Positions 23,014-50,858 of a stretch of 64,000 nt of DNA are shown here, piece by piece. The position numbers and the translations under genes were made by a program. Positions within the stretch are counted from its first letter, which is position 1. Each line of letters begins with the position of its first letter. The DNA lies in NCBI GenBank assembly GCA_965219455.1, contig OZ244744.1:544001-608000 (forward strand). The letters are read 5' to 3'. This DNA comes from Candidatus Latescibacterota bacterium. Lineage in GTDB: Bacteria; Latescibacterota; UBA2968; GCA-2709665. The notes below the pieces were generated by a model. The model did no database searches. It was given only the letters and a program-made list of their open reading frames with translations, and was not told the origin of the DNA.

Positions 23014-23042
23014 AGATACCATCGAGGGCGCAAACAGGGGAA

Positions 23043-23256
23043 CATGGATATACAGGATAGGCAGGATAAAGGCAAGAGACCAGAAAAGCGGTACAAGCAT
23101 TCAGACGGGGCAAAGCAGGACACGGGCTGTGGTGGATGACGAGGCAGGTATGGGGGCTAAGAAGACGTACTGAACCGGTGGGAAATCTCCATGCGCATGT
23201 TTAACTGGTTTTTGCGACTTTTGTGATTCTCATCCTGTATATCCTGTCCATCCATG
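23043..23256. repeat. CAGGAT-nonamer inverted pair L1/R1
   Basis: Left arm CATGGATATACAGGATAGGCAGGATAAA (23043-23070); right arm CATCCTGTATATCCTGTCCATCCATG (23231-23256). Confidence 0.9.
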
Positions 23257-23304
23257 TAGGTCGTTGTTGGTAGCAAGAGACCATAGAGAGTAGATGCAGG
23301 GAAA

Positions 23305-23642
23305 CATGTATAGACAGGATAGGCAGGATAAAGGCAAAAAACGACTGTGATTCGTGTGATTATAATGATGGGCTGTGATTAAAGGCAAAAGCGGCGGAGA
23401 AGCGAGAAACTATGGATATATAGGATGAAGACCAAAACCCGACGATCGCGCGAACCGAAATCCCACCCTACCCACCCAGTCCATTCCTGCACTTTAATCG
23501 AACTAATCGCAAGCATTCAACAGTGGGTCACGTGGTGAATCGGATTTCGCTCGTCTTCCTGCCCGCGCATCTGCCTTAGTCACAGTAATCATAGTCTAAT
23601 CACGGTAATCACAGTCTATCCTGCTCATCCTGTCCATCCATG
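23305..23642. repeat. Composite MITE-like element: CAGGAT arms plus inner TGATT-nonamer arms
   Basis: L arm 23305-23332, then GACTGTGATTCGTGTGATT...; right side AATCATAGTCTAATCACGGTAATCACAGTC plus R arm 23617-23642; homologous to 47298-47656. Confidence 0.85.
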
Positions 23643-23679
23643 TAAATTGTCGTTAAACGACATCAATGAAACCTTACCC

Positions 23680-26208
23680 ATGAACGAAGCAGCGGCGAGA
23701 ATCAAGATCAACAAACTGCTCGAGGCGGCCGGGTGGCGGTTCTTCGATGAAGACGGCAAGCCGGGCAACATTCGCGTCGAACAGAAGGTCGTCATGAAGC
23801 ACGAGGATCTGGACGCTTTGGGCGACGATTTCGAGAATGCGACCGGTCGGATCGATTTCCTCCTCCTGAACGAGAAGGGCTTCCCGCTCGTCGTTCTGGA
23901 GGCCAAGTCCGAGGACAAGAATCCTCTTGTGGGAAAGGAACAGGCCCGGAAATACGCCCGTTCGCAGAACTGCCGCTTCGTTATCCTCTCCAACGGAAAT
24001 CTGCACTACTTCTGGGACCTCGACCGTGGTAATCCATACCTTGTCACATCCTTCCCCACGCCGGAGTCCGTAACCGGCTATAACAAAGTCCAACCCAACA
24101 CGCAGCGCCTGGTCGATGAGCGGGTCCGCGAGGACTACATTGTGCTCACCCAGCGGCCGAACTATGCTTCGGAAGCCGCCTGGAAAAACGAAGCCGAGCG
24201 CCCCGGCTTTATCAAATCCAATAAACTGAGTTTACTCCGCCCCTACCAACTCCGGGCCGTTCATGCTCTGCAGCGGGCGGTGAGAGACGGCAGAGACAGG
24301 TTTCTGTTCGAAATGGCCACGGGTACGGGCAAGACGCTCGTCGCCGCAGCGGTCATCAAGCTCTTTATGCGCTCGGGCAACGCATCCCGAGTCCTGTTTC
24401 TCGTGGACCGGCTGGAACTCGAGGAGCAGGCTCGCAAGGTCTTCTCCGCCCTGCTCTCGGCGGACTTCCAGACGGTGGTGTACAAAGAGCGGCGCGACGA
24501 CTGGCGCTCGGCGGAAATCGTCGTCACCACGGTCCAGTCGCTGCTGTTCAACAACAAGTATCAGGCTCTCTTCTCCCCTACCGACTTCGACCTCGTCATC
24601 TCGGACGAAGCGCACCGGTCCATCGGCGGAAATGCCAGGTCCGTATTCGACTATTTCGTGGGGTACAAACTGGGCCTGACCGCGACCCCCCGGGACTATC
24701 TCAAGGGATTCGACGAAACGCGTCCTGACACGCGGGACCCGCGCGAAGCCGAACGCCGCTTGCTCCTGGACACCTACCGCACCTTCGGGTGTGAAAGCGG
24801 ACAGCCCACGTTCAAGTACTCCCTGCTCGACGGCGTTAAGGACGGCTATCTGATCAACCCGACGGTTGTGGATGCACGCACAAAGGTGACGACCGAATTG
24901 CTCTCGGAACAGGGATTCGTCGTTTCCTTTACGGACGACGAGGGAGAAGAGCAGGAAGAGGCCTACAAAAAGCGTGAATTTGAGAAGCGCTTCTTTTCCG
25001 ACGCGACCAACCAGATCTTCTGCAAGACATTCCTGGAGAACGCGCTGCGGGACCCCGTCAGCGGCGAAGTCGGCAAGTCCATCATATTTGCGGTCAGCCA
25101 GAAACACGCGTCAACATTGACTCAAATCCTCAATGCGATGGCCCACATGATGTTTCCGGACAAATACCAGTCGAACTTCGCAGTGCAGGTCACGTCGCAG
25201 ATCGCGGATGCCCAGCGGTTTACCGTGAATTTCAGTAACAACAACCTGCTCGGATCGGGGAACTTTCTTCCCGCGTACCTTACGAGTAAAGCGCGGGTCT
25301 GCGTAACCGTTGGCATGATGACCACCGGGTACGACTGTACCGACATTTTGAACCTGGGACTGTTCCGCCCCATCTTCTCTCCCACCGACTTCATCCAGAT
25401 CAAGGGACGCGGTACGCGAAAACACAGCTTCCTTGAGCAGTTGCTCGATCCGGCCTTGGCGGAACGCGTAGATGAGCCCGATAAGATTGCGTTCAAACTG
25501 TTCGATTTCTTCGCCAACTGCGAATACTTCGAAACGGAGTTCAACTACGACGAAGTCTTGGGACTGCCTGTCTATCAGGATGGTGAAGAACGTGAGGGCG
25601 CGGAATCTCCCGGGGCCGACGCGGGCGCCTACGAATATCTGGGCAGGGACATCCTGTCCACGATCAAGGTCGAGGCCGTCGGTTCGGAAGGGATGAAGAT
25701 CGACCGCATGTTCTTCGAGAAATTCGAGGATACCGTGCGGAAGGACGACGTCATCGCCGCGGCCGTCGAGGCCGGTCAGTGGGACCGGGTGATCGATTAC
25801 GTCAACCAGGAGGTTTTCGACCGTCCCGAAGAGTACTATACTCTTGAAAAGCTGCGCCGGGCAGCGGCCGTGGACCGCCGCATCACCCTCAGGGAGATTC
25901 TGGAGAAGGTATTCGGGCTGATCCCGCGATTTAAATCCAGGGACGAAATGCTGGAAGAGGAATTCGCGAAGTTCGTGGCCGACTACACGCCGGAGGAAGT
26001 CGAGTCCATCCCCGCGATCAAGAACTACTTCAAGGCGTACGTGACCAGCGACCAGATCCGCCACATCATTGAAAAACGGGACTACACCGGCCTGGCCACG
26101 AACCCCGTTCTCTCAATGCAGGACCTCCGCGCAGTCCCGGAGAAATACCGCGAACTCGTCCCTGAATACGTCAAGGACTTTGTACCGTTAAACCAGTTCG
26201 CCGCTTAG
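23680..26208 (+). CDS. hsdR: Type I restriction enzyme R subunit (HsdR)
   Basis: N-terminal IDFLL...VLEAK...QARKYA nuclease motif; MATGTGKT, LFLVDR, DEAHRS, LTATP, TGYD, QIKGRGTR. Confidence 0.9.
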   Translation: MNEAAARIKINKLLEAAGWRFFDEDGKPGNIRVEQKVVMKHEDLDALGDDFENATGRIDFLLLNEKGFPLVVLEAKSEDKNPLVGKEQARKYARSQNCRFVILSNGNLHYFWDLDRGNPYLVTSFPTPESVTGYNKVQPNTQRLVDERVREDYIVLTQRPNYASEAAWKNEAERPGFIKSNKLSLLRPYQLRAVHALQRAVRDGRDRFLFEMATGTGKTLVAAAVIKLFMRSGNASRVLFLVDRLELEEQARKVFSALLSADFQTVVYKERRDDWRSAEIVVTTVQSLLFNNKYQALFSPTDFDLVISDEAHRSIGGNARSVFDYFVGYKLGLTATPRDYLKGFDETRPDTRDPREAERRLLLDTYRTFGCESGQPTFKYSLLDGVKDGYLINPTVVDARTKVTTELLSEQGFVVSFTDDEGEEQEEAYKKREFEKRFFSDATNQIFCKTFLENALRDPVSGEVGKSIIFAVSQKHASTLTQILNAMAHMMFPDKYQSNFAVQVTSQIADAQRFTVNFSNNNLLGSGNFLPAYLTSKARVCVTVGMMTTGYDCTDILNLGLFRPIFSPTDFIQIKGRGTRKHSFLEQLLDPALAERVDEPDKIAFKLFDFFANCEYFETEFNYDEVLGLPVYQDGEEREGAESPGADAGAYEYLGRDILSTIKVEAVGSEGMKIDRMFFEKFEDTVRKDDVIAAAVEAGQWDRVIDYVNQEVFDRPEEYYTLEKLRRAAAVDRRITLREILEKVFGLIPRFKSRDEMLEEEFAKFVADYTPEEVESIPAIKNYFKAYVTSDQIRHIIEKRDYTGLATNPVLSMQDLRAVPEKYRELVPEYVKDFVPLNQFAA

Positions 26209-26237
26209 CCTCTTTAATTCAAAAAGCCGGAACTTAC

Positions 26238-26648
26238 ATGGATAAACAGGATGGACAGGATAAAAGGCTCGCACACGCCGACACCACCCGTAGGATTATC
26301 GGCTGCGCGATGCAGGTGATCAATGAGCTTGGGAGCGGCTTCCTGGAATCCGTTTATGAGAAGGCGATGACCGTCGCGTTAACCGACGACGGTGTGTCGC
26401 ACGAAGTACAGCAGCCCATTGACGTGCGTTTTCGCGGCAGAACCGTTGGCGACTTCGTCGCGGATATCCTGGTCGAAGACCGGGTCATCGTGGAACTGAA
26501 AGCCGTCAATTCGCTTACCGGCGAGCACGAAGCCCAGGTCATCAACTATCTAAATGCGACGGGGATCCCTGTGGGATTGTTGATCAACTTCGGGAAACCG
26601 AAACTGGAGTTTAAGCGGTTCACACGAACACGGAAAACACAAAATTAA
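26238..26648 (+). CDS. GxxExxY protein (PD-(D/E)XK superfamily)
   Basis: LGSGFLESVYE (GxxExxY), ADILVEDRVIVELKAV, HEAQVINYL, GLLINFG; the first 9 codons are a repeat arm. Confidence 0.93.
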   Translation: MDKQDGQDKRLAHADTTRRIIGCAMQVINELGSGFLESVYEKAMTVALTDDGVSHEVQQPIDVRFRGRTVGDFVADILVEDRVIVELKAVNSLTGEHEAQVINYLNATGIPVGLLINFGKPKLEFKRFTRTRKTQN

Positions 26649-26649
26649 A

Positions 26650-26962
26650 CATGGATGCACAGGATAGGCAGGATAAAATCAACACCCGCAATCAGGTGAA
26701 AAAGGCCCAACCATATGGGTGAAGCAGTGGTCAAGTGTAATGCACGCGTTCAACACCGTCGCTCCGAGCGTAGGCGTAGGCGCCAGAAGATCTCTCGTAA
26801 GGACCGTATCTGGCTCTTGCATGTATGCCCGGTCGAATTGGTCGGACTTACCGTTTCGAAATTATACTGAACACGCTGTCTATCTCCAAAGGGTCCGGTG
26901 AGAATATGCAGGGTCCGGCATTTGTGTTTTTGAATTCATCCTGTTTATCCTGTTCATCCATG
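26650..26962. repeat. CAGGAT-nonamer inverted pair L4/R3 directly after the GxxExxY stop
   Basis: CATGGATGCACAGGATAGGCAGGATAAA (26650-26677) and CATCCTGTTTATCCTGTTCATCCATG (26937-26962). Confidence 0.9.
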
Positions 26963-27011
26963 TAAGTTTGAGGTTGGTAGCGAAAGACCATTGAGGGCGC
27001 GAACAGGGGAA

Positions 27012-28990
<1,979 letters not shown>

Positions 28991-29208
28991 CATGGATATA
29001 CAGGATAGACAGGATAAAGGCGGAAAGCCTAGAAAAGCGGTACGTACTCAGACGGAACAGAAGTAGAATCGCAGTTAACTGCAAGGCAGTATGCAGCAGC
29101 AAGCTCTGGGTAAAGAAAATACCCGCAACGGCAGGAATTGTTGATGCGCTGGCTGAACCTGATGTTTTGGGTTTGGGGTCTTTATCCTGTGCATCCTGTA
29201 CATCCATG
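28991..29208. repeat. CAGGAT-nonamer inverted pair L5/R4 (L5 is the intron target)
   Basis: CATGGATATACAGGATAGACAGGATAAA (28991-29018) and TTTATCCTGTGCATCCTGTACATCCATG (29181-29208). Confidence 0.9.
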
Positions 29209-29224
29209 TAAGTTGGGGTTTCTT

Positions 29225-31801
29225 ATGCTCGATAGCGAAACAAAACGCCGTATAGATACGGCTCGTGACATCCTGGTCGGTAAGGTGCCCGATCCGAAGA
29301 GCCAGGTCGAGCAGATTACGATCGCGTTGATCTACAAGTTCATGGACGACATGGACGCCGCGAGCGAAGAACTCGGGGGCACGCGGAGGTTCTTCGCCGG
29401 CGAGTTCGCCCGTTTCGGTTGGCCGAAGCTCATGCGTTCCGGCCTCGGCGGTCACGAGATGCTCGGCCTTTATGCCGAGGCGATTGACAGGATGCCTGAG
29501 AACCCGGGCATCCCGCCGCTTTTCCGCGATATCTTCAACAACGCGTACCTCCCCTATCGCGACCCGGAGACGCTCCGAGCTTTCCTTAAGATCATCGACG
29601 AATTCACCTACGACCACAGCGAGCGGCTCGGCGACGCCTTCGAATACCTGCTCTCGGTCCTCGGATCACAGGGCGACGCCGGGCAGTTCCGGACCCCACG
29701 CCATATCATCGACTTCATCGTTGCGGTCCTTGACCCGAAGAAGAGCGAAACCGTCCTCGACCCGGCCTGCGGCACCGCCGGGTTTCTGATTTCGTCGTAC
29801 AAGCATATCCTGGCGGACAATGCCGACGACAAGGGAATTGTTACCCTTACACCCGACGAACGAGAAAGACTCACGGCCAACTTGCAGGGCTATGACATCT
29901 CGCCGGATATGGTCCGCCTGTCGCTGGTAAACATGTACCTGCACGGCTTCCAGGACCCGCACATCTTCGAATACGACACCCTCACCAGTGAAGAACGCTG
30001 GACCGAGTACGCAGACGTGATTCTGGCCAATCCGCCGTTCATGTCGCCGAAGGGCGGCATCCGCCCGCACAACCGCTTTTCGGTGAAATCGAAACGGAGC
30101 GAAGTGCTGTTCGTGGACTACATGGCCGAACATCTCACGCCAGCCGGCCGCGCCGGGATCATTGTCCCGGAGGGCATCATCTTCCAGAGCCAGAACGCCC
30201 ACAAACAGTTGCGCAAGATGCTGGTGGAGGAATACCTGGTGGCCGTCGTCTCCCTCCCCGCAGGTGTCTTTAACCCCTACTCCGGCGTCAAGACATCCAT
30301 CCTCATCCTCGACAAATCCCTGGCGAAGAGGACCGACCACATCGCCTTCTTCAAAGTCGAAAACGACGGCTTCGACCTCGGCGCCCAACGCAGACCGATT
30401 GACAAGAACGACCTGCCGCAGACGCAACAGGCGGCGAAAGAATACATGGAAAATGTGGGGAACATGGATGGACAGGATGGGCAGGATAAAGACGAACCAC
30501 CCCCCTCTCCCGATGAGTCGGTCCTGGAGCAACTCATCCAGCAAGGGGCGGCGCTCATCGTCGAAAAAACAAAAATCGCGGATGGTGGGGAATACAACCT
30601 GAGTGGGGAGAGGTATAGGGAGACAACAAGGATCAGTAGTGCGGTCCCTTTTGTATCAATCGGCGAGATTTGTATTGTCAACCCGCCCAAATCTGAGCTC
30701 ACGGCGTTTCCAACGGATACAACAGTCTCATTTGTGCCGATGTCAGACATCAACGAGAACCAAATCACATTCGTCGCAAAGCAGCAGAAAATTCTAGGTC
30801 AGGTTGGTGCCAGCTACACTTACTTCGCAGACAATGATGTCTTGGTATCAAAGGTGACGCCATGTTTTGAAAACGGCAAAGCTGGGATTGCGAGAAATTT
30901 GAAAAATGGAATTGGATTCGGTTCCAGCGAATTCTACGTGATTCGAGCGTCTGAAGAGGTGCTTCCGGAGTGGGTCTATTATTGCGTTACACATGCGTCA
31001 TTTCGACAAGCCGGTATCGATAATATGACAGGAACAGGTGGACTTCAGCGTGTGCCGCGAAAGTTCATTGAGGATTTCCAAATCCCCCTCCCGTCAATTC
31101 AGTTGCAGCGAGAGATCGTGTCGGAGATCGAGGGTTATCAGCGGGTGATCGACGGCGCGCGCACAGTGATCGACAACTACCGGCCGCATATTCCCATCGA
31201 TCCCGACTGGCCGATGGTGGAGGTCCGTGAAATTTGTACTGTGAATCCCCGAAGATCGGAACTGGCTTCACTTAACGGCACAATATCCGTTTCTTTCGTA
31301 CCAATGGCCGATCTGGGCACCAACACCATGTATTTTGCAAGCCGACAATTCAAAAGTCTTGAGGATGTTGGGGCTAGCTATACTTATTTTAGGGACAATG
31401 ACGTCCTTCTCGCAAAAGTAACGCCGTGTTTTGAGAACGGTAAAGCGGGGATCGCGAACGGCTTGAGGAACGGTATTGGATTCGGCTCAAGCGAATTCTA
31501 TGTGCTTAGACCAACCCACATTGTACTCGCCGAATGGATATTTCTATGCGTCGCTACTGCCACATTTCGTAAATGGGCGACACCGCAAATGACTGGAACC
31601 GGCGGATTGCAGCGCGTGCCAAAAGCCGTATTGGAGAGCTACAGAATTCCCCTACCCTCCCGTGAGATTCAGAAAGGAATCGTCTCGGAAATCAAGAGCG
31701 AACAGGCACTCTTGGATTCAAACCGGACGTTGGTGAATCGGATGGAGAAGAGGATTCGGGCGGCCATCGGGAGGGTGTGGGGAGACGGGAGACAAAGATA
31801 A
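29225..31801 (+). CDS. Fused type I methyltransferase-specificity subunit (HsdM-HsdS)
   Basis: GQFRTPRH, DPACGTAGFL, NPPF methylase motifs, then two TRD repeats each ending IPLP; single ORF. Confidence 0.9.
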   Translation: MLDSETKRRIDTARDILVGKVPDPKSQVEQITIALIYKFMDDMDAASEELGGTRRFFAGEFARFGWPKLMRSGLGGHEMLGLYAEAIDRMPENPGIPPLFRDIFNNAYLPYRDPETLRAFLKIIDEFTYDHSERLGDAFEYLLSVLGSQGDAGQFRTPRHIIDFIVAVLDPKKSETVLDPACGTAGFLISSYKHILADNADDKGIVTLTPDERERLTANLQGYDISPDMVRLSLVNMYLHGFQDPHIFEYDTLTSEERWTEYADVILANPPFMSPKGGIRPHNRFSVKSKRSEVLFVDYMAEHLTPAGRAGIIVPEGIIFQSQNAHKQLRKMLVEEYLVAVVSLPAGVFNPYSGVKTSILILDKSLAKRTDHIAFFKVENDGFDLGAQRRPIDKNDLPQTQQAAKEYMENVGNMDGQDGQDKDEPPPSPDESVLEQLIQQGAALIVEKTKIADGGEYNLSGERYRETTRISSAVPFVSIGEICIVNPPKSELTAFPTDTTVSFVPMSDINENQITFVAKQQKILGQVGASYTYFADNDVLVSKVTPCFENGKAGIARNLKNGIGFGSSEFYVIRASEEVLPEWVYYCVTHASFRQAGIDNMTGTGGLQRVPRKFIEDFQIPLPSIQLQREIVSEIEGYQRVIDGARTVIDNYRPHIPIDPDWPMVEVREICTVNPRRSELASLNGTISVSFVPMADLGTNTMYFASRQFKSLEDVGASYTYFRDNDVLLAKVTPCFENGKAGIANGLRNGIGFGSSEFYVLRPTHIVLAEWIFLCVATATFRKWATPQMTGTGGLQRVPKAVLESYRIPLPSREIQKGIVSEIKSEQALLDSNRTLVNRMEKRIRAAIGRVWGDGRQR

Positions 31802-32100: not shown

Positions 32101-33237
32101 ATGCCTATCGACGATAATCTCCTTGAACAGCTACTTCATGAGGAAGAAGGATCTGCGCTAGATTTTAAGCGCGATCAATACCCTTTTGAAGGACCAGATC
32201 GCAACGCAAAGGGTGAATTAATAAAGGACATCCTCGCGTTTGCAAATGCCTGGCGTAGGACCACCGCATTTATACTCATTGGAGTAGATGAAGTAAAGGG
32301 TGGACGTAGCAAAATTGTCGGTGTCAATAAACACTTGGACGATGCCAAGTTGCATCAGTTTGTAAATTCAAAGACTCAGCGGCCTGTGGAATTCTCGTAT
32401 CAACCGTTTCACACTAAGGATGGAGAAATAGGAGTGATAGAGATTCCAATACAAAAACGTCCTTTCTATCTAAAGAAGCAGTTTGGCAAAGTAACACCCA
32501 ACTCAGTTTACAAGAGGGACGGCAGTTCGACTGCGATTGCGACCCCCGACGAAGTTGCAACGATGGGTGCTGAACAACACATTGGCGGAATTCCTCAACT
32601 CGCTCTTCACTGGGCGGATATAGATAGACGTGCCATTCTGTCGTCGCCACTCAGCGTAAGTACGCTGATTCTCGATCCTCAACTGCCTGACGATACATTT
32701 GAAAATCCGAACGCGCTTGCCTTCGATTTCCGAAACAACCGTAATTTCTATAAAGAAGCAATTCGGTATGCTTTCGATATGTCGTTTATGAGACCCTTCG
32801 GACTGCAGCTGTGTAATCAAAGTCCGGTTGTCGCGAGACGCGTGCGGTTTGTTGGATCGATAAACAAAGGAGAAACACGCTCGGTCCTTGATCATAGGAA
32901 TCATCCGACGCGTCCATATCGGAATCCCGCTGACCCAAGGAGATTTTCTGTCGTTCCGCTTGCACAGCAGCTCAGGAACACACCAGACCCTTACGTTCAG
33001 GAACTTCCGAACAGATGGGATATTACAATTGACTTTGGGGATGTGCGCCCTCGCGACGAAGTTTGGACGAGCAGTGAACTGCTAATTGGATCAATCGGAG
33101 GGGTAACCACATTGAAGGGCGAGTTACGGGGTGACAACCTACCGGAACCCATTTTGTGCGCGCTCGAAATCAACTTCGAGGTCAAGCGAAGACCGATGGA
33201 GGTGTCGGATGTCGAACCGTGTTTGGATGACCAATAA
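32101..33237 (+). CDS. AlbA_2/Schlafen-like domain protein with an unknown C-terminal domain
   Basis: EEGSALDFKRDQY...IKDILAFANA...ILIGVDE. Confidence 0.8.
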   Translation: MPIDDNLLEQLLHEEEGSALDFKRDQYPFEGPDRNAKGELIKDILAFANAWRRTTAFILIGVDEVKGGRSKIVGVNKHLDDAKLHQFVNSKTQRPVEFSYQPFHTKDGEIGVIEIPIQKRPFYLKKQFGKVTPNSVYKRDGSSTAIATPDEVATMGAEQHIGGIPQLALHWADIDRRAILSSPLSVSTLILDPQLPDDTFENPNALAFDFRNNRNFYKEAIRYAFDMSFMRPFGLQLCNQSPVVARRVRFVGSINKGETRSVLDHRNHPTRPYRNPADPRRFSVVPLAQQLRNTPDPYVQELPNRWDITIDFGDVRPRDEVWTSSELLIGSIGGVTTLKGELRGDNLPEPILCALEINFEVKRRPMEVSDVEPCLDDQ

Positions 33238-33432
33238 AACCACGTTGAATAGGTCGTTGCAAGGCGCGAAAGATCGAGCGGTTCGAGGAGAAAACTCAGG
33301 CGGAAATTAAGCGGGTGTGGTGAGCCGGGGAAAACGACTTTTGTGATAACGGATTGAGATGATGAAGGGGCAGGAAACGGTTGAATTTGGGATGACGGGT
33401 ATATTTCGGTGTGAGGCGTTGAAGAGGGACAA

Positions 33433-34419
33433 ATGACGAGAAAGAGAAGATCGCCAGTTAGGACACGATTGCTTCAGAACTCACGCGAGGCGGCCCTGAA
33501 CGCAGTTCAGACTTTTAACAATCCACTCACCACATTCAAGGCCGAGACGTTCATCGTGCTAATGAATATTGCTTGGATGTACCTACTGCATGCCTTCTAC
33601 CGACGCGAGGGAGTTGAATATCGTTATTACACCAAGGGACCGAAGCGACGCAAATTCGACCGGACCAAATCAGGTGCGTTCAAATACTGGCAGCTTGAGC
33701 GCTGCCTCAATGACGACGCCTGTCCGTTGGACAGGCCAACCAAGCTTAACCTTAGATTTCTCATTGGGTTGCGCCATGAAATAGAACATCATCAATCTGC
33801 CGGCGCCGACGAGCGATTCTCTGGACGGTATCTTGCATGCTGCCTCAACTACGAGCGATACATTTGCGAATTGTTCGGCGAGCGGCATTCCCTTGATGCG
33901 GCTGTCGCCATTACGCTCCAGTTCCGCGACCTCACCAACACGTCCGTACCTCAAAAGGCCGAGGTCCCTTTGGCTGCGAACGTCGCTAAGTACATTCAAG
34001 AGTTTGATGCAGGTCTGTCCGACGAAGAGTTAAAATCTCCGCACTTTCGCCGGCGTTTTCTCTTTGTACCGTCGGTAACAGGAAAAAAAGCCCAAGCCGA
34101 TGAGATAATCGAGTTCGTGCCGTTCAATTCCGAACTCGGGAATGCAATCAGAGAAGTGCATCAGCGTGTACTGTTGAAAGAAACCGAGCGCCCAAAACAT
34201 CTGCCTAGCCAGATTGTCGCGTTGATGAAACAAGAAGGGTGCACCGGTTTCAAAATGCACCACCACACGCAGTTATGGAAGAAAATGGACGCGAAAAATT
34301 CCGGAAAGGGCTATGGTGTAATGGTCGCACGCGCTTGGTATTGGTACGACCGATGGGTAGAGGAAGTCCGGAAGCACTGCGTAGAGAATGAGGAGTTGTA
34401 CACTCAGCCAAATGACTAG
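33433..34419 (+). CDS. DUF3644-like (HEPN-related) protein
   Basis: SREAALNAVQTFNNP..FKAETFIVLMNIAW.YLLHA; LRHEIEH fits R-x4-H. Confidence 0.75.
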   Translation: MTRKRRSPVRTRLLQNSREAALNAVQTFNNPLTTFKAETFIVLMNIAWMYLLHAFYRREGVEYRYYTKGPKRRKFDRTKSGAFKYWQLERCLNDDACPLDRPTKLNLRFLIGLRHEIEHHQSAGADERFSGRYLACCLNYERYICELFGERHSLDAAVAITLQFRDLTNTSVPQKAEVPLAANVAKYIQEFDAGLSDEELKSPHFRRRFLFVPSVTGKKAQADEIIEFVPFNSELGNAIREVHQRVLLKETERPKHLPSQIVALMKQEGCTGFKMHHHTQLWKKMDAKNSGKGYGVMVARAWYWYDRWVEEVRKHCVENEELYTQPND

Positions 34420-35485
34420 GTTGACGCTGGATAACTGCGAACCGGACTAGAAACCATCCTAGCAATTTTCCGCTTGTAGTCAAAGTACTGCGAGGTATGT
34501 CAAAAGCAGAAAATTCGCCAATGAGACGTCGTATTGATGAACGAGACTATAAAGACGCTTGAAGAATTCATCGCGTGGACGGAGAAATTGGACGGCCGGA
34601 TGCTTCTCTACCGCGGGCTTGCAGACGCGGATTGGAGGGTCGAGTCGTCAGCTTTGCGCAGACTAAGGGTATCGTCGGAAGCCCCCCCACCGATCGCGTT
34701 CCAAAACTACACGAAACAACTTCTGGACAACGCAAGCCTGCAAGGATTTCGATATCAACGTGACCGGGAAATGTCCGACCTGGAACTGCTCGCCGAACTG
34801 CAGCACTATGGCGCAGCAACGTGCCTAATTGACTTTACCGAGAATTCTCTAATTGCTCTCTGGTTTGCGTGTCGCGAAGAATTGAAAAAGGACGCAAAGG
34901 TTGTCGCTATGCCAACGGAAGATCCGGATAAATTTCGCACTGTGACCTATGAACATTCGAAACGACCTATTTTGCAATTCCTCAATAAGGGAAACCTGTG
35001 GCAGTGGACACCCAGCAGCCTGAACAACCGGATCGTAGCGCAACTGTCGGTGTTTGTATTTGGTGAAGGCGCGATACAGGAGAATCTGTACGACGAGATT
35101 GGGATTGAAGCGGAAGCCAAGCCGAGCATAAAGGCTACTTTGGAGAGATCATTTGGTTTGAACGAACAACGTGTTTTCAGCGATCTCTCAGGCTTTGCTC
35201 TCAATAACGCGCATGACAGGCCCTATAACAATTATACGGCAGAGGATTTCTTCTATTGGGGTTTGAATTATCATCAGCAAGGGCAACTCAAAAACGCAAT
35301 AGAATATTACGGGAAGGCAATCGTGCTCGATCCCAGATCCGTCGTATCATACGACAATCGGGGTAGTGCGAAGAGTGCGTTGGGCGACCATAAGGCTGCC
35401 ATATCTGACTTCGATAGGGCAATTGAAATCTATCCGCAATCCGCCGATGCGTTCTACAATCGTGGAAACTCGAAGCGCGCGCTAG

Positions 35486-38986: not shown

Positions 38987-39282
38987 ATCCACATTATGAT
39001 CCAGTGTACGTAGGTATAAATGTGTCCCATTATTGAAGGGGTCCATCTACAAAGTCTTAGCCTTGAAATGCGCAAAGAGGCCTTGCCATCTAGCCAATTC
39101 ACGGAGATGCTCATCAAAATCCGTTACGATATTAGGTTAAACGTCGAAGTTGAGAAAAGATGCAAAGTTTGGAAGAATACGCGAACAATGCAGATTTGAA
39201 TGAACAGCAATTCTGCACCCACGCCTACTGCTTGCATTAACGAAAGCATATGCTCTGTCTGCTGCAATCATCGAGGTGAAAC

Positions 39283-40941
39283 GTGAGAACCAAATATCTT
39301 AAAAAATTTCCACCGCCGCTACTTGATGATCTTGTTTGCGGTCGTTGGCTACCGATCGTGGGCGCCGGAATGTCGAAAAATGCCGTTCTGGCCGCTGGGA
39401 ACACCATGCCGCTTTGGCAAGAGCTTGGCGAGAAACTTGCTGAAGAAATACAAGGTTTTGAATATGAATCGCCAATAGATGCAATTTCTGCTTTTGATCA
39501 TGAGTTTCGCCGACCAAAACTGATCGAGAAACTGACCGAATTGCTTCACATTTACGACGCTAAGCCTGGTGACGCGCATCGCACGTTTTGCGATGTTCCA
39601 TTCGATATCGTCTGCACGACCAATTTTGATTTTTTCCTCGAAAGACAATATGAACTTACTCCACGGCCTTGTACTTCGCTTGTTGAGGAAGATCAGCTTT
39701 CCGTAAATCTACAAGGTTCGAGTATCGCTCTGTTAAAGTTACACGGGGACCTAAACCACCCAAATCGCTTGGTTGTCACTGAGGAAGATTACGATGCATT
39801 CCTTGAACGCTACCCCGTACTCGCAACATATCTGGCAAATCTTTTAATCACTCGAACTCCTGTCCTAATCGGTTACAGTATGAGCGACCCGGATTTTAGG
39901 CAGTTGTGGCAAATCGTTGAAGAAAGACTTGGTAAGGCACGACGGCTGGCATACGCGTTATGCGTTGGCGTCTCGTCGACTGAAGTAGCGCGATTTCATC
40001 GTCGAGGTGTAAAGGTAATCAACTTGTCGAAAAATAGAAAAAGATCAGGGCAAGTTCTCTCGGAAACCTTTGACGAGTTGAATAAGTATTGGCAGGAGAA
40101 AAATCCTATCGGAAGTCAGTTGAAAGAAGAAGAATCTCCAGAGCAGTTTACTCTTCAGAAAAAAGCTGTGACTAGGCTTTGCTTTTTTGCCATCCCCCTT
40201 TCAGCGCGTCCTTTTTATCTCGCGAATGTGTTCCCGCTGGTTGAAGAGGTAGGACTCGCACCAATAACGGCAGATCCCAACACCTCTCCTGGTGGGAATA
40301 TCTTTGCGACGATCGATGCTTTGGTTAGCCGAGCATCACTTATCGTAGTTGACACTTCAAGTGAGTATGCCGTGGCCGAGGCCCGGAGGACAATTGCACG
40401 CGAAAAACCCGTTAAAGTACTGGTAGTTGCCCAAGAAGGCACCTCTACGCCATTCGATATGACTGGTATGGAGATTCTCTACAGACCAGACTTAACCTCA
40501 CGTGACGTGGGCAAATTTCTCGACGAATTCTTAGTGCGACTTACGGCAACTCTTGAAGAAATACAGCCGAAGCTAGCCGACGAGAGGCATCGCTCGCTGC
40601 AATCTGAAGAAATACAGCCGAAGCTAGCCGGAGAAAGGCATCGCTTACTAAAATCCAACGAGTACAGAGCTGCGGTCATTTCCGCAATTACACATCTAGA
40701 GACGGTGTTGAGGAGACGGCTTGACGTGGCAGAAACTACAGATAGAGGGTTTGTATCCGTGACCAATATGATCAACATCGCAAAACGGCGCGAATTACTT
40801 GGTAAGTTTGCCGTCGACCAGGTGTTGCGATGGCTAGAGATGCGCAATCAAGTGGTGCATAGCGATATCTCAGTAAGCCCGACTATGGCTAAAAGGATTG
40901 TACACGGAGTCGACGAAATAACCAGAGAACTACTCCCATAG
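39283..40941 (+). CDS. SIR2-like domain protein with a possible C-terminal HEPN-like domain
   Basis: IVGAGMS, TTNFD, KLHGD, IGYSMSDP (SIR2_2 pattern); C-terminal MRNQVVH fits R-x4-H. Confidence 0.82.
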   Translation: MRTKYLKKFPPPLLDDLVCGRWLPIVGAGMSKNAVLAAGNTMPLWQELGEKLAEEIQGFEYESPIDAISAFDHEFRRPKLIEKLTELLHIYDAKPGDAHRTFCDVPFDIVCTTNFDFFLERQYELTPRPCTSLVEEDQLSVNLQGSSIALLKLHGDLNHPNRLVVTEEDYDAFLERYPVLATYLANLLITRTPVLIGYSMSDPDFRQLWQIVEERLGKARRLAYALCVGVSSTEVARFHRRGVKVINLSKNRKRSGQVLSETFDELNKYWQEKNPIGSQLKEEESPEQFTLQKKAVTRLCFFAIPLSARPFYLANVFPLVEEVGLAPITADPNTSPGGNIFATIDALVSRASLIVVDTSSEYAVAEARRTIAREKPVKVLVVAQEGTSTPFDMTGMEILYRPDLTSRDVGKFLDEFLVRLTATLEEIQPKLADERHRSLQSEEIQPKLAGERHRLLKSNEYRAAVISAITHLETVLRRRLDVAETTDRGFVSVTNMINIAKRRELLGKFAVDQVLRWLEMRNQVVHSDISVSPTMAKRIVHGVDEITRELLP

Positions 40942-41029
40942 AATCGTGAAACGAAGGTTTTTCCGTTTTTATACCTTGCGTCCTGTTCCTCCTTGTTTAA
41001 CGGTTTTGGTTTTGACCCGTTCTTGCGGT

Positions 41030-41057
41030 TTTATCCTGTTCATCCTGTCCATCCATG
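41030..41057 (-). repeat. CAGGAT-nonamer right arm R5
   Basis: TTTATCCTGTTCATCCTGTCCATCCATG. Confidence 0.9.
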
Positions 41058-41122
41058 TAGGTCGATTTGGGTTTACGAAGTTGTCGAATCCATATGAATC
41101 CATGTTGGGAAGGAGGTCCGTG

Positions 41123-44006: not shown

Positions 44007-44065
44007 CATCCTGCTCATCCTGCCTGCCTGTGCGTGTGGCACGCACGCAGACAGGTCCATCCATG
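44007..44065 (-). repeat. CAGGAT right arm R6, split by a 33-nt palindromic insert
   Basis: CATCCTGCTCATCCTG-[CCTGCCTGTGCGTGTGGCACGCACGCAGACAGG 44023-44055]-TCCATCCATG. Confidence 0.85.
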
Positions 44066-44106
44066 TGAGTTGTTTTTGGTTTGATTGCCGAGAGGGAGGT
44101 CGCGCG

Positions 44107-44718: not shown

Positions 44719-44891
44719 AACATGGATGCACAGGATAAGAACCGGGAAACCCAAATCCCGATTTTCACGTAAACCACAGTATTGGCGCGAATCCGTGGTG
44801 CGGATGAAGTCTTGGAGGGCAGATAACGGGCGGGGTGTGAATGGGTGAGATATCAGGGAGGACGACAGATAGCTGAGTGGTCAATCAGGCA

Positions 44892-45182: not shown

Positions 45183-45318
45183 TTTCTCCTCCTAACGACA
45201 ATGAGTGAAAGATAACGCATCTCCTCGCGGAATCAAAATCCCACATGCTTCATCGGCTGGACAGATGTACTCTCCAGATATTTCGCTGATCCTTTTCTCC
45301 GACAGCCGAAGCATGAAA

Positions 45319-47297
<1,979 letters not shown>

Positions 47298-47656
47298 CAT
47301 GGATGTACAGGATAGGCAGGACAAGGACCAAAAACGACTATGATTCGTGTGACTATAACGATGGGCTGTGATTCGAGGCAAGAGCGGCGAAGCGCGGGGC
47401 ATGGATGTTTAAGATGGCCGTTGCGGTTAACACGACGCACCTGATATCCGCTGTAGCCCTTCCGCTACCACGCGCCCTGATCATAGAAAATTCAGTCCAG
47501 TCACGGTAACCGCAGAACGAGACTGCTTTTTGCCGTGTTTCAGATGGCAAATCGGATTTCGCTCGCCTTTCCTGTCCGCCCATCTGCCTTGGCCGCGGCA
47601 ATCATAGTTTAATCATAGTAATCACATTATTGTCCTGTTCATCCTGTCTAACCATA
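47298..47656. repeat. Composite MITE-like element (homolog of 23305-23642)
   Basis: L arm 47298-47325 plus ACGACTATGATTCGTGTGACTATAACGATGGGCTGTGATT; right end CGGATTTCGCTCG...AATCATAGTTTAATCATAGTAATCAC plus R arm 47631-47656. Confidence 0.85.
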
Positions 47657-47776
47657 GTTTGATGGATTTTTTTTATTTTGGGAATTTACCGTGAATCCAT
47701 GACGGCGTTCGGGCGTCTGTTTATTAGCAGCCTGTTGACAATGCATCCACCGGGGCCAGCCGGTTTCATGGTTATA

Positions 47777-47803
47777 TTATCCTGTCCATCCTGTATATCC
47801 ATG
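47777..47803 (-). repeat. CAGGAT right arm R8
   Basis: TTATCCTGTCCATCCTGTATATCCATG, immediately followed by the TTAA IS target. Confidence 0.88.
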
Positions 47804-47807
47804 TTAA

Positions 47808-49488
47808 CCCCAATTATTCACAAAAAAGGTAGTTTCCTTACCCAAGTCATTGTGTTATATTATGGTTAGCCAAATAACCAAATAACAATGAACTTGGAGG
47901 AAACTACCGTGGAAGTTCAAGATAATCAACTCGCACTTCCTTTCGCAAGTGTTTCGGGCAAGCAGGTGGAAGCCGTCTTCGATGGCGGTGTGCTCACCAG
48001 CGATATCGGGTTGATGCTGCTTCGAGAGGTGGCGTCCAGAATCGGCATCCTGTCTCGGATCGTCGAGGCGTTAACGGACCGTCGGCATCCAAGTTATGTG
48101 GATCACACGATGGTGGACCTGATCAGCCAGCGTGTCTTTCAGATCGCGTGCGCGTATGAAGATGCGAACGATTGCAATGTGTTGCGCGAGGACCCTGCGT
48201 TCAAGGCGGCCTGTGATCGGTTGCCGATATCAGGGGCGCCGTTGGCCAGCCAACCCACGATGAGTCGATTGGAAAACGGGATTCGTCGCAGGGACTTATA
48301 TCGTATTGCCGAGGCCCTTGTGGACGGATTTATCGCGTCCTACGATAGGCCTCCCGACGCGGTCGTTCTGGATATCGATGACACCGATGACGAGGTTCAC
48401 GGCAAGCAACAGTTGTCGTTGTTCAATGGCTATTACGATGAACGCTGTTACTGTCCCTTGCACATTTATGAAGGCCGGACAGGAAGACTGATCACGACGC
48501 TGCTGCGTCCGGGCGCCCGTCCTACCGGCAAACAGATTGTCAGCATTCTTAAGCGACTGGTGAAAATCCTTCGTGAGGCGTGGCCGGACGTGCGACTCTT
48601 TTTGCGTGGCGATGGCCATTTTTCCTGTCCTGAGGTCCACGACTTTTGCGACGAGCAAGACGTGTATTTTGTGCTGGGACAGACGGGCAATGCCAGGCTT
48701 GCACAACGGGGACACGCGTTGATCGAGCAGGCAAAGGCCCAGTATCGGGAAACCGGACAGCCCGTGCAGTTATTTACCTGTTTCGCTTACCAGGCAGATA
48801 CTTGGGCCGTGCCAAGGCGCATCATCTACAAAGCTGAAATCACCGCTTCCGGACAAGCCAATACACGCTTTGTCGTCACCAACCTGAAAAGTAGCCAGCC
48901 CTCATTCATCTACAAAACCGTCTATAGCGCGCGCGGCAGGATGGAAAACTTCATCAAGAATCACAAAACCTTCCTCCATTCCGATCGTACCTCCTGTCAC
49001 ACCTTCGAAGCCAATCACTTCCGTCTCTTCCTGCATAGTGCCGCTTATGTCTTGATGCAGACCCTTACCGAAAAAGGACTCCGGGCGACCCAATGGACGC
49101 ACGCCCAGTTTAATACCATTCAGAATCGCATTCTCAAAGTCGCCGGGAGAGTGTCCGAACTCAAAACCAAAATCAAACTCCATTTGCCAACATCATTTCC
49201 CTTGAAACACCTCTATGACACCATCCTCTGTAATTTGGCAAAGGCATATCCATAACGCCGTTTCACCACCGCCGATCCATCCCTTTCTCATCGCCACCAA
49301 GTAAGACCAAGGCATCCGTCTGTCCTTTCCAACCACAAATCAAAGCACTCGACACCCCTCAATGCTGACGGCACACCCAAAATTACTCATCATCGCGTCA
49401 CCAACACGTCATTCGACTATTTTCCCTTCTACAGATCACTTTCTACTTCCAAAAACACTGTTCCGTTCAGTTTCATGAATTAGTCAGG
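47808..49488 (+). mobile_element. IS1380-family insertion sequence (second, distinct type)
   Basis: Imperfect IRs CCCCAATTATTCA / TGAATTAGTCAGG; TTAA duplication at 47804-47807 and 49489-49492. Confidence 0.85.
47909..49255 (+). CDS. IS1380-family transposase
   Basis: FDGGVLTSD, YEDAND, LASQPTMSRLEN, LDIDDTDD, RGDGHF, YSARGRMENFIK. Confidence 0.92.
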   Translation: MEVQDNQLALPFASVSGKQVEAVFDGGVLTSDIGLMLLREVASRIGILSRIVEALTDRRHPSYVDHTMVDLISQRVFQIACAYEDANDCNVLREDPAFKAACDRLPISGAPLASQPTMSRLENGIRRRDLYRIAEALVDGFIASYDRPPDAVVLDIDDTDDEVHGKQQLSLFNGYYDERCYCPLHIYEGRTGRLITTLLRPGARPTGKQIVSILKRLVKILREAWPDVRLFLRGDGHFSCPEVHDFCDEQDVYFVLGQTGNARLAQRGHALIEQAKAQYRETGQPVQLFTCFAYQADTWAVPRRIIYKAEITASGQANTRFVVTNLKSSQPSFIYKTVYSARGRMENFIKNHKTFLHSDRTSCHTFEANHFRLFLHSAAYVLMQTLTEKGLRATQWTHAQFNTIQNRILKVAGRVSELKTKIKLHLPTSFPLKHLYDTILCNLAKAYP

Positions 49489-49522
49489 TTAATTCTTCGA
49501 ATCGGAAATGCGGGAGCCGGTG

Positions 49523-49708
49523 ATGAGCAGACAGTTGACGGCATTTATCGAGCGGGTCGGCGACGGGTATGTCGCGCTCTGCCCCGAGTTGGACATCGCG
49601 AGCCAGGGGAACACGATAGCCGAATCGAAGGAAAACCTGAAGAAAGAACTGGAATCGTTCCTCGAGACGGCGTCAATTGCAGAGATCAAATTCCGGCTGC
49701 GCGAGTGA
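49523..49708 (+). CDS. HicB-family antitoxin (short), no intact HicA seen
   Basis: GYVALCPELDIASQGNTIAESKENLK. Confidence 0.8.
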   Translation: MSRQLTAFIERVGDGYVALCPELDIASQGNTIAESKENLKKELESFLETASIAEIKFRLRE

Positions 49709-49782
49709 GTCTACACGACGAGGATAGAGGGCAGGGATTGTCCAGGTGCATTGATGGCGATCCTAACGACAACAGCATGTGA

Positions 49783-49810
49783 CATGGTTGAACAGGATAG
49801 TCAGGATTAA
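49783..49810 (+). repeat. CAGGAT left arm L9
   Basis: CATGGTTGAACAGGATAGTCAGGATTAA. Confidence 0.75.
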
Positions 49811-49855
49811 AACCACAATTCCACAAACGATGTCGGTTGTTTCCTGTTGTTTTTG

Positions 49856-49907
49856 TTGACAGGTATTTTTTTATTGACTATAATGATCATAGTCATAACT
49901 ATAGTCA
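49856..49907 (+). promoter_or_regulatory. Consensus sigma70 promoter with overlapping operator palindromes for phd-vapC
   Basis: TTGACA (49856-49861), 17 nt, TATAAT (49879-49884); TGACTAT...ATAGTCA inverted repeat (49875-49895) plus TAACTATAGTCA. Confidence 0.8.
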
Positions 49908-49929
49908 TTTACTTGGCCGAGGGGAGAGC

Positions 49930-50157
49930 ATGAATTCCATTTCAAAGAGCAAGCTGAAAGCCAACATGCTCCGCATCTTTCGCGAGCTTGAGAAATCCGG
50001 CGAAGAACTGATTGTCACGGATCGCGGTCGCCAGGTGTTGCGCATTCAGCCTGTATCGAAAAAGAAGACCGTGGACGACGTGTTTGCCGCGCTTCGGAGC
50101 CGGGTCGTCTTTCGCGAAAACGCGGGTCCGGCCGTCGGTCGAGAGAAAGGACCGTGA
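49930..50157 (+). CDS. Phd/YefM-family antitoxin
   Basis: ISKSKLKANMLRIFRELEKSGEELIVTDRG; overlaps the vapC start. Confidence 0.85.
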   Translation: MNSISKSKLKANMLRIFRELEKSGEELIVTDRGRQVLRIQPVSKKKTVDDVFAALRSRVVFRENAGPAVGREKGP

Positions 50158-50537
50158 TGCTCCTCCTGGACACGTCGCCCCTGCTGTTCTGGACCCTGGA
50201 CCCCGATCGGCTGTCTGCAGCCGCGGCGCAGGCTGTATCGGATGCAGGTCAAATCGCCGTCAGTGCGGTATCGATTTGGGAAATCGGTACCAAAGTTAAG
50301 AAAGAACAACTGGTTATGCCGATATCGGTCCGCGAATATACCGATAGACTCGAGCAGATCGACCGCTTCGAAATCCTGCCCGTCTGCGCGCGGACCCTGA
50401 TCCGGAGCGTCGAGCTCGACTGGGACCATCGCGACCCTGCCGATCGGATCATTGTCGCAACCGCCAGCCTGAACGCCTGCCCCATCGTCACCTCCGATTC
50501 AATAATCCAGGCGTTCTATTCACAGACCATCTGGTAA
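50154..50537 (+). CDS. vapC: VapC-family PIN-domain toxin
   Basis: LLLDTS, VSAVSIWEI, HRDPADRIIVATA, IVTSD. Confidence 0.9.
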   Translation: MMLLLDTSPLLFWTLDPDRLSAAAAQAVSDAGQIAVSAVSIWEIGTKVKKEQLVMPISVREYTDRLEQIDRFEILPVCARTLIRSVELDWDHRDPADRIIVATASLNACPIVTSDSIIQAFYSQTIW

Positions 50538-50583
50538 ACCTGGATTGACGACGCCCCACCATCGAGAGCAACACCCAACTTTA

Positions 50584-50858
50584 CATGGATGCACAGGATA
50601 AAGACCAAGAATCGAAACGTCGCGCAGATCGCGATTACATCCTGTCCACCGTGTCCAACCGGTTTCCCTAATCACACAAAATACATTAATCGCGTGACCT
50701 ATGACTAATTGACAGTATACCCTTTAGATCCACGTTTGTCGGTGTTGGTTTGAGAACTTCCCGTGTGTCCGCAACGGCTCCGGGAAGTCTTCTTTTCAGC
50801 AGAGTTAATCAGCGAACGCCGGTCTTGCAGTTCATGGTTTCCGTCCTGTTCATCCATG
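50584..50858. repeat. Degenerate CAGGAT pair L10/R10 closing the accessory region
   Basis: CATGGATGCACAGGATAAA (50584-50602) and GTCCTGTTCATCCATG (50843-50858); TGATT-arm relic TAATCACAGTCGTT at 50875-50888. Confidence 0.75.

Follow-up and report, generated by a model that had tools for sequence, protein, structure and literature searches.

We analysed 64,000 nucleotides of the genome of a Candidatus Latescibacterota bacterium (assembly GCA_965219455.1, contig OZ244744.1, positions 544,001 to 608,000; this whole stretch is called the window, and its positions are numbered from its first letter), in which an island of accessory genes is strewn with short repeats built of 9-nt-phased CAGGAT words. 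These repeats, here called arms, occur in the forward orientation (left arms, plus strand) or in the reverse one (right arms, minus strand), and among them lies a gene of the GxxExxY family that is predicted to encode a small nuclease of the PD-(D/E)XK fold. A sequence-only reading of the window had proposed that this nuclease drives the spread of the arms. Our comparisons indicate that the gene and its arms form a single unit by descent and that the arms mark the borders of gene cassettes, and they give no support to a driver role of the gene.

In the order of the window, the island carries a type I restriction subunit R-like gene, the GxxExxY gene, a group II intron, a fused methylase-specificity gene and then Schlafen-like, DUF3644, FRG-TPR and SIR2 genes; it also holds two insertion-sequence transposase genes, two CMD-like cassettes, a second intron copy and a Phd/PIN pair. 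The arms and the features tied to them are the following.

22995..23041, plus strand: 3' end of lptE and the 29 nt that follow it, resembled by a recurrent spacer of about 45 nt (repeat family D3)
23042..23071, plus strand: left arm made of the tip ACATGGAT, two nnnCAGGAT units and AAA, 29 nt past the lptE stop (nhmmer E 1e-07)
23227..23258, minus strand: right arm that pairs with 23042 in a 217-nt element (nhmmer E 1.2e-06)
23304..23333, plus strand: left arm, ATGTAT variant; the interior of its element opens with GTGATTA-type periodic repeats (nhmmer E 1.4e-06)
23617..23644, minus strand: right arm directly before the hsdR-like gene (nhmmer E 1.5e-06)
23647..26208, plus strand: type I restriction subunit R-like gene, ResIII and HSDR_N domains (Pfam; PADLOC REase_I E 3e-56)
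26235..26264, plus strand: left arm, the ATG of which (26238) is the GxxExxY start codon (nhmmer E 1.2e-07)
26238..26648, plus strand: GxxExxY gene, 136 aa, predicted PD-(D/E)XK fold with D76/E86/K88 (PF13366 E 2e-41; TIGR04256)
26649..26678, plus strand: left arm, 1 nt past the GxxExxY stop (nhmmer E 8e-08)
26933..26964, minus strand: right arm that pairs with 26649 in a 316-nt element (nhmmer E 1.5e-06)
27005..28990, minus strand: group II intron with a reverse transcriptase/maturase reading frame at 27169-28539 (Rfam RF02003 and RF00029; RVT_1 and GIIM; TIGR04416)
28990..29019, plus strand: left arm, 5' exon of the minus-strand intron (nhmmer E 7e-08)
29177..29210, minus strand: right arm, 14 nt before the methylase start codon (nhmmer E 6e-08)
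29225..31801, plus strand: fused methylase-specificity gene, hsdM-hsdS-like (Pfam N6_Mtase and Methylase_S; PADLOC MTase_I 4-465, Specificity_I from 474)
30461..30490, plus strand: left arm in frame within the methylase-specificity gene, encoding NMDGQDGQDK (nhmmer E 4e-08)
41028..41059, minus strand: right arm upstream of a truncated CMD-like cassette, right border of an 18-kb block (nhmmer E 9e-08; synteny)
44007..44066, minus strand: right arm upstream of a CMD-like cassette, interrupted by a palindrome (nhmmer E 2.4)
44720..44745, plus strand: left arm with one CAGGAT unit, directly past the stop of the CMD-like cassette (nhmmer E 0.04)
45317..47297, minus strand: second, identical intron copy at an arm tip (Rfam; copy boundaries)
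47297..47326, plus strand: left arm, 5' exon of the second intron copy (nhmmer E 8e-07)
47628..47658, minus strand: degenerate right arm that pairs with 47297 (nhmmer E 8e-05)
47775..47805, minus strand: right arm upstream of an insertion-sequence transposase gene (47888-49255, DDE_Tnp_1_4) (nhmmer E 1.6e-07; Pfam)
49782..49811, plus strand: left arm, ATGGTT variant, upstream of the Phd/PIN pair (49837-50537) (nhmmer E 2e-06; Pfam)
50582..50606, plus strand: left arm with one unit, past the PIN gene (nhmmer E 0.03)
50844..50860, minus strand: degenerate right arm, the last before conserved synteny returns at 50919 (nhmmer E 0.46)

The start codon of the R-like gene is uncertain (TTG at 23647 or a later ATG), and against NCBIfam the protein is EcoAI-like, under the cut-off.

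The strict arm pattern CAGGATRNNCAGGAT, searched with at most one mismatch, has 16 matches in the window against 0.08 expected, a number that none of 100 shuffles reached. The genome as a whole (5.84 Mb, one contig) contains 30 strict matches, and a motif scan over its full length places 16 of 30 within these 28 kb. A profile built from 26 arms and run over the genome with nhmmer at E ≤ 10 gave 48 matches, of which 19 fall inside the window; they recover every one of the 19 arms (10 left and 9 right) that the sequence-only reading had listed, each at most 4 nt off. Beyond these 19, the profile gives nothing more in the window at that threshold, and hence no arm lies in 1-23000 or after 50900, just as had been claimed. 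The six facing left/right pairs described earlier are likewise all present (23042-23258, 23304-23644, 26649-26964, 28990-29210, 47297-47658 and 50582-50860). Four of the arms are weaker than described: 44720 (E 0.04) and 50582 (E 0.03) retain a single CAGGAT unit, 50844 is degenerate (E 0.46), and 44007 (E 2.4) is broken by a palindromic insertion of roughly 20-35 nt. At the position of arm 44720, loci L001-L004 carry full-length orthologous arms. Of note, a GC-rich palindrome of roughly 20-35 nt recurs at one fixed position within CAGGAT arms (44020-44055 in the window, 1529629 and 2362342 in the genome, and near 1687 in L009), and it has the look of another hairpin element, a tiny one, with arms as its targets.

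An arm consists of the tip ACATGGAT, one to three core words nnnCAGGAT phased at 9 bp (exceptionally about 15) and an A-rich inner end, and a complete element consists of two inverted arms around a loop of 5 to several hundred nt. The arms are the halves of a palindromic element, usually a hairpin of 59-158 nt, and AATT often borders the compact hairpins. Rfam run on the window at the gathering threshold matched no family to the arms, and run on five hairpin loci at E ≤ 0.1 it returned a spurious microRNA model as its sole match. In genome G015 (L130, 3324-3476), about 15 tandem 9-nt units AGACAGGAT stand directly upstream of the GxxExxY gene, showing that the number of units is highly variable. 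Genome-wide, other hexamers recur at other fixed spacings (GCTGAC/ATCAGC at 7 nt, CAAAAG at 10 nt), and several families of periodic words therefore coexist in the genome.

The arms are widespread. We scanned 41 related genomes with a pattern of 18 specified bases, using the reversed pattern as a control, and found arms in all 14 further genomes of the same genus (5-86 copies each), in one of two genomes of a sister genus and in one of 16 genomes of another genus; the reversed pattern had no match in any related genome scanned. An exact motif of 21 specified bases was found in at least 119 stretches of one-genome-per-species contigs, for a chance estimate of about 0.3 under uniform composition. 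Judging from the 85 record titles among the matches listed, their carriers come from many phyla, among them the Latescibacterota, Acidobacteriota, Chloroflexota, Verrucomicrobiota, Planctomycetota and Gemmatimonadota, and further the Gamma-, Beta- and Deltaproteobacteria, Elusimicrobiota, Armatimonadota, Nitrospinota and Bacteroidetes. Arms often face each other as inverted doublets that could fold into hairpins: in addition to the six of the window, 66 adjacent left-to-right pairs occur in the 119 matches listed, 28 of them spanning at most 77 nt and 51 spanning 59-158 nt. According to Pfam, the 273 open reading frames (ORFs) within 250 nt of arms among the matches listed are a broad mix of ordinary genes; recurrence is limited to the restriction-modification (R-M) system, at 10 of 119 loci, and GxxExxY, at 6 of the 124 loci examined and each time at most 30 nt from an arm, and no transposase or integrase recurs among these ORFs.

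The GxxExxY protein of the window scores 141 bits against PF13366 (cut-off 22) and 142 bits against TIGR04256 (cut-off 35), and its catalytic residues D76, E86 and K88 as well as the motif residues E37 and Y40 are invariant in 36 of 36 sequences. A search of the PDB returned no sequence relative; the AlphaFold model (mean predicted local distance difference test score 87) has Cas4 and lambda exonuclease as its nearest folds, and predicts a Cas4/lambda-exonuclease-like PD-(D/E)XK core. The gene begins inside left arm 26235, the ATG of which is the only plausible start codon of the ORF, and the next left arm starts 1 nt past the stop; the first nine residues, which are arm-encoded, are predicted to be disordered. 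The earlier description of a single gene bracketed by arms thus holds for the window, and has to be qualified for the genome, which contains four PF13366 genes, the other three each accompanied by short-period arms of another core word.

The association with arms extends to every GxxExxY gene whose flanks we read (11 of 11: the window copy, seven copies in type I R-M or lptE loci of relatives, and the three others of this genome), and the arm core varies with protein identity to the window copy, being CAGGAT at 75-100% identity and CACGAAG, CACAAAAG, GTGATTA or CGCGAAA at 38-48%. The R-GxxExxY-M loci of relatives display the same partition, copies of 75-77% identity (G009 and G015) carrying CAGGAT arms and copies of 40-47% identity carrying CACGAAG, CACAAAAG or GTGATTA arms. 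Among 80 metagenome relatives, a sample biased toward CAGGAT arms because one of the six search patterns was arm-encoded, such arms accompany 22 of 22 genes at 62% identity or more and 19 of 58 genes below it, the rest having other words with periods of 8-10 nt. The 22 closer relatives usually share one layout: one left arm lies at the start codon, a second follows the stop by 4-8 nt, and a right arm comes about 70-80 nt after that. When the arm label was mapped on a tree of the 36 proteins, 16 changes were counted against a shuffled mean of 20.5, a value reached in none of 200 shuffles; arm type thus clusters on the protein tree, a pattern that kinship alone could give. On the strength of these sequence comparisons, we consider gene and arms to be one unit by descent.

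The arms also reveal which of their positions are constrained. Four sets of orthologous arms, each drawn from at most five species, were collected with a profile that was itself based on the cores, leaving out the window copies 44720, 50582 and 44007; pairwise differences in them amount to 8/551 in the cores, 41/174 in the triplets and 50/261 at the edges. In 30 pairs of facing arms, the variable triplets are no more complementary than in random arm pairs; since the triplets do not pair beyond chance, it is the core words, and not a perfect stem, that are constrained. The core words are kept by selection or by gene conversion. The same comparison led us to reject a perfect hairpin, or an RNA stem bracketing each cistron. 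We also considered a GGA-rich protein-binding RNA motif, which the arms recall, and rejected it given that sister arm families have cores without GGA and that both strands occur.

The flanks of the island (DsbA-like, DUF1844 and LptE genes on the left, NUDIX-like and cysK genes on the right) are syntenic in four other species of the genus, at 81-87% identity. In L001, the lptE-NUDIX interval measures about 4 kb and contains HicAB, CMD-like, HigAB, HicB and Phd-PIN cassettes with arms between them, and arms separate toxin-antitoxin cassettes throughout L001-L004. Furthermore, the blocks of homology between the window and the four relatives stop at arms (23073, 41106 and 44737), and the 18-kb block at 23.1-41.1 kb, which lies between left arm 23042 and the right arm ending at 41059, is absent from all four, in agreement with the proposal that arms delimit an accessory region. 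The arms would act as portable joints at these cassette borders, and the lptE-NUDIX interval is a cassette array across the genus. Here it has grown to 28 kb, R-M genes, candidate defence genes, two introns and a pair of insertion sequences having been taken up between arms. A spacer of about 45 nt that resembles the 3' end of lptE recurs between a right and a left arm (23259-23303 and 26965-27004, and also in L009/L131); it resembles an attachment site duplicated in the course of serial insertions beside lptE. The candidate defence genes of the block absent from relatives lie at 32101-40941 and comprise Schlafen/AlbA_2 (PDC-S50), DUF3644 (PDC-S19, E 5e-132) and FRG-TPR (PDC-S15) genes, together with a gene for a SIR2_2 protein resembling ThsA and a 303-aa ORF without family.

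Cassette borders are best resolved at the R-M genes. Arm 30461 lies exactly between the MTase_I and Specificity_I parts of the fused ORF, and an arm peptide is found at the same linker in five of seven homologues from other genomes, as a single arm in three and as a full hairpin in two; L031 has another complete hairpin, in frame inside the methylase domain. By our own reading, five of the six frames of the arm consensus are free of stops. We further compared the junction between the R and M genes in four genomes with methylases 90-100% identical, namely that of the window, G011, G012 and G001. In all four, a left arm directly follows the R stop and the M start is preceded, at about 15-25 nt, by a right arm, and what lies between these arms differs: GxxExxY, a hairpin and the intron in the window; CACAAAAG words, a GxxExxY gene seen as two overlapping matches, likely the result of a frameshift, and a hairpin in G011; about 400 nt without ORF in G012; and an ORF-less intron with mixed periodic words in G001. 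The outer arms of this junction are constant, and its loop is the site of turnover. The R-M system itself is not the vehicle or driver of the arms, inasmuch as the two do not correlate: the methylase occurs in 4 of the 14 further genomes of the genus, all 14 of which have arms, and in 9 of 16 genomes of genus g6, of which one has arms. A role of the arms as promoter or 5' untranslated region elements was likewise discarded, some single arms lying 20-60 nt upstream of starts and others following stops or facing each other. Contigs assembled from public reads contain joints at arms with short sides of 21-31 letters at 90% likeness; these sides most likely belong to other arm copies or organisms, and such joints show neither excision nor cassette exchange. 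Contigs of metatranscriptome RNA libraries, of unassignable source organism, cover 27167-28997 and 35520-36812 (the intron and one insertion sequence), and not the restriction or GxxExxY genes.

The group II intron is tied to the same sites. Seven of seven full copies (at least 99.7% identical), including the two of the window, which are identical to each other, directly follow an arm tip, so that the arm is the 5' exon, and their 3' exons are unrelated. Excerpts of a study of group IIC introns (PMC1702495) describe insertion downstream of terminators or other inverted repeats; the present introns are alike in their position immediately 3' to an inverted repeat and in their free 3' exon, a likeness that concerns the insertion site only. 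A second intron subfamily (87-89% identical; genome positions 1948930, 2846937, 4658364 and 4792995) follows another short-period word, with a CAGCTGTYA-like end, which suggests that intron lineages have been retargeted to different arm families. The ORF-less derivative of G001 (L248, 3013-3770) measures about 750 nt, has kept its 5' and 3' RNA domains and sits at the arm tip of the R-M junction.

Our current working hypothesis, to which we assign a probability of about 0.45, is that the nuclease reads the phased core words and copies its cassette beside existing arms, and that the arms survive its loss and serve as joints at which cassettes are exchanged. As part of this explanation, and with chances somewhat short of even, the arms would be the recognition modules of a widespread, hairpin-shaped family of selfish repeats. 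The full-length form would be the GxxExxY cassette, composed of a left arm with the start codon, the ORF, a left arm, a loop and a right arm, and the far more numerous gene-less hairpins and single arms would be its derivatives. In a first, homing-like step, which may be compared with the behaviour of the resident group II intron at arm tips, the PD-(D/E)XK nuclease would recognise core words and copy the cassette beside existing arms or into their loop. Recombination between the two direct left arms would then remove the ORF and leave a gene-less hairpin. Finally, arms would persist and multiply without the nuclease, through horizontal transfer together with cassettes such as type I R-M systems, as passengers of other small repeats and through arm-to-arm recombination.

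Several observations, besides the core-based profile and the arm-encoded search pattern mentioned above, weigh against this hypothesis. If the cognate gene in relatives is defined as a GxxExxY gene of at least 75% identity, only 9 of 27 arm-bearing genomes possess it, 4 of 17 relatives (G000, G009, G015 and, in a broken form, G011) and 5 of 10 distant genomes (G042, G043, G045, G046 and G049, with one or two genes of 58-71% identity, that of G049 with an internal stop). A search for GxxExxY gave no match in G003, which has 5 arms, or in G008, which has 24 on a single contig, and in G012, which has 86 arms, the only GxxExxY gene is 42% identical and lies away from arms. The distant arm-bearing genomes in which no cognate gene was found are G041 (133 arms), G047 (21, one contig), G048 (29), G044 (7) and G050 (5); the ten distant genomes were picked for having arms, and some are incomplete bins, which makes a missing gene weak evidence. 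Conversely, some GxxExxY gene is present in 13 of 19 genomes of family f2, and arms in 1 of 19. Cores conserved in species without the gene imply another reader of the cores, or gene conversion, and the co-variation of arm and protein could stem from co-inheritance or relatedness alone. No target-site duplication or empty site marks any arm-delimited insertion among the loci compared. Moreover, both recent bursts that we resolved amplify repeats larger than an arm pair, with the arm internal. In G012 (L132-L151), the unit is a 249-nt repeat with near-palindromic ends, TAG on both sides and a single CAGGAT arm near its left end, of which the window's genome has only two near-full copies; in G041, a member of the Terriglobia (L232-L243), a 202-nt arm pair is centred in a longer multi-copy repeat with conserved flanks of at least 45 nt on each side. 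Of the earlier claim that GxxExxY drives the arms, what stands is the unity of gene and arms, every one of the 11 genes being armed and the word following the clade. The driver role is unsupported, given that no cognate gene was found in two thirds of arm-bearing genomes, G041 with its 133 arms among them; abundant arms in genomes lacking the gene are an outcome that the sequence-only reading had itself named as refuting.

These observations lend some weight to the possibility that the arms are binding sites or recombination joints for another factor, GxxExxY being one of several cargo genes and its co-variation with the arms reflecting co-inheritance. The 18 of 27 arm-bearing genomes that lack a cognate gene would then be expected, as would a rate of change in the cores about 13-16 times below that of neighbouring positions, in a genus of which 11 of the 14 further species have no such gene; non-complementary triplets are what protein sites, and not a stem, should show, and HicAB, HigAB, Phd-PIN and CMD-like cassettes are bracketed by arms just as well, as is the methylase/specificity junction. 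We nevertheless hold this account to be rather unlikely. It has no candidate factor, as no transposase or integrase recurs among the 273 neighbour ORFs of the matches listed; the fixed GxxExxY layout recurs in several clades with different words, which is hard to square with passive cargo, and the toxin-antitoxin cassettes show no comparable specificity of arm type. A strict REPIN-like model, in which GxxExxY would act in trans on all arms of a genome and drive their multiplication, goes to the other extreme and seems to us improbable. It draws on the flanking of GxxExxY by its own repeat type, which excerpts of PMC3116915 describe for RAYT genes, on the clustering of arm type on the protein tree and on 5 of 10 distant genomes in which 30-141 arms stand against one or two cognate genes, an internal stop being present in one of these. 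This model founders on arm-rich genomes without a cognate gene (G041 with 133, G012 with 86, G008 with 24 and G047 with 21 arms) and on bursts in G012 and G041 that copy larger units not ending at arms, and in the present genome only one of four GxxExxY genes is near CAGGAT arms and single arms located elsewhere make up half of the strict ones.

Classical mobile elements could also account for inverted arms. That a DDE transposase, for instance that of the IS5- or IS1380-like gene of the island, moves ordinary miniature elements whose terminal inverted repeats are the arms is a proposal that we rate as poorly as the strict REPIN-like one. Left-right pairs of discrete length do recur (in G041, for example, at about 202 and about 148 nt), the 249-nt repeat of G012 has TAG on both sides, AATT often flanks compact hairpins and the island has two DDE transposase genes; however, the arm is internal, not terminal, in both multi-copy families, AATT is itself palindromic and need not be a target duplication, and no transposase recurs beside arms in the 119 loci of the matches listed. 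No left-to-right pair encloses a transposase gene either, the insertion sequence of the island being situated between a right and a left arm, outside the element. The small cassettes, toxin-antitoxin pairs among them, that are split by imperfect palindromes of 59-158 nt may instead evoke an integron-like array with arm pairs as attC-type sites of a tyrosine recombinase, all the more since a group II intron stands beside the palindromes, as excerpts of PMC3001079 and PMC1702495 describe for attC-targeting IIC introns. We find this last account highly implausible: there is no integron integrase (the best TIGR02249 match, which lies outside the window, has 88.9 bits for a cut-off of 265), arms and cassettes occur in both orientations, the same palindromes stand singly between housekeeping genes in many phyla, and no Rfam family matches the arms. 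We thus retain, as the best explanation at hand, a nuclease that would read core words and arms that would outlive it.

Several known systems resemble the arms in part. Rickettsia palindromic elements are short palindromes that lie between genes and also in frame in coding genes, where they are read as an extra peptide. The arm read in frame in the methylase-specificity gene is similar in behaviour only, as the arms are unrelated in sequence, not bound to one genus, periodic at 9 nt and associated with a nuclease gene. Some intervening sequences of 23S rRNA genes have inverted ends that enclose a small ORF. They share with the GxxExxY cassette a small ORF in the loop of a long inverted repeat within a transcription unit, and differ in that the paired arms show no compensatory changes at variable positions; excerpts of PMC10053308 state that large intervening sequences encode ORFs. 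In REPIN-RAYT systems, doublets of REPs (extragenic palindromes that are repetitive) form hairpins and are accompanied by REP-associated tyrosine transposases (RAYTs), as excerpted from Bertels and Rainey 2011 (PMC3116915). The arms are alike in being short extragenic repeats in inverted, hairpin-capable doublets, with one or two small nuclease-type genes that have their own repeat type on their flanks, gene-less copies numbering from tens to over 100 per genome and a repeat type that co-varies with the gene clade. They are unlike in that the gene belongs to the PD-(D/E)XK fold (PF13366/TIGR04256) and not to the HUH Y1 transposases, that arms consist of core words phased at 7 to 10 nt with free spacers and not of one palindromic REP, that the same arm sequence is common to many phyla and that two thirds of the arm-bearing genomes examined have no cognate gene. 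A RAYT gene was looked for with PF01797 (Y1_Tnp) and rejected, the two weak matches in the genome being at 1.91-1.92 Mb with no arm nearby. Integrons and clusters of attC sites lacking integrases (CALINs) share promoter-poor small cassettes, imperfect palindromes of attC length and an intron homing to the palindrome, whereas the array described here has no integrase, mixed orientations, a palindrome sequence conserved across phyla and single elements between core genes. PDDEXK_3 is listed as a family of unknown function with many horizontal transfers in excerpts of PMC3424549. Our literature search on the arm words, GxxExxY, PDDEXK_3, PF13366 and TIGR04256 returned only primers, an annotation mention and a fold survey, with nothing on function or repeats, and no description of a GxxExxY gene-plus-arms design was found in the literature searched.

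A bolder proposal, which we put forward as doubtful, is that GxxExxY proteins are sequence-programmed nucleases with a specificity spelled by phased core words; gene and arms would form an undescribed, cross-phylum class of selfish elements, and gene-less arms would serve as universal joints for the exchange of defence, toxin-antitoxin and restriction specificity cassettes, an analogue of integrons without a recombinase. The GxxExxY/PDDEXK_3 proteins make up a very large orphan family, and their fixed association with phased-word arms provides a first concrete candidate substrate. The arms account for many spurious short ORFs and in-frame insertions in environmental genomes, and they mark the growth points of a defence island and the joins of restriction specificity domains to the methylase. 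If the nuclease does read the core words, it would represent a compact, programmable DNA-recognition system and a new nuclease-repeat replicator beside REPIN-RAYT.

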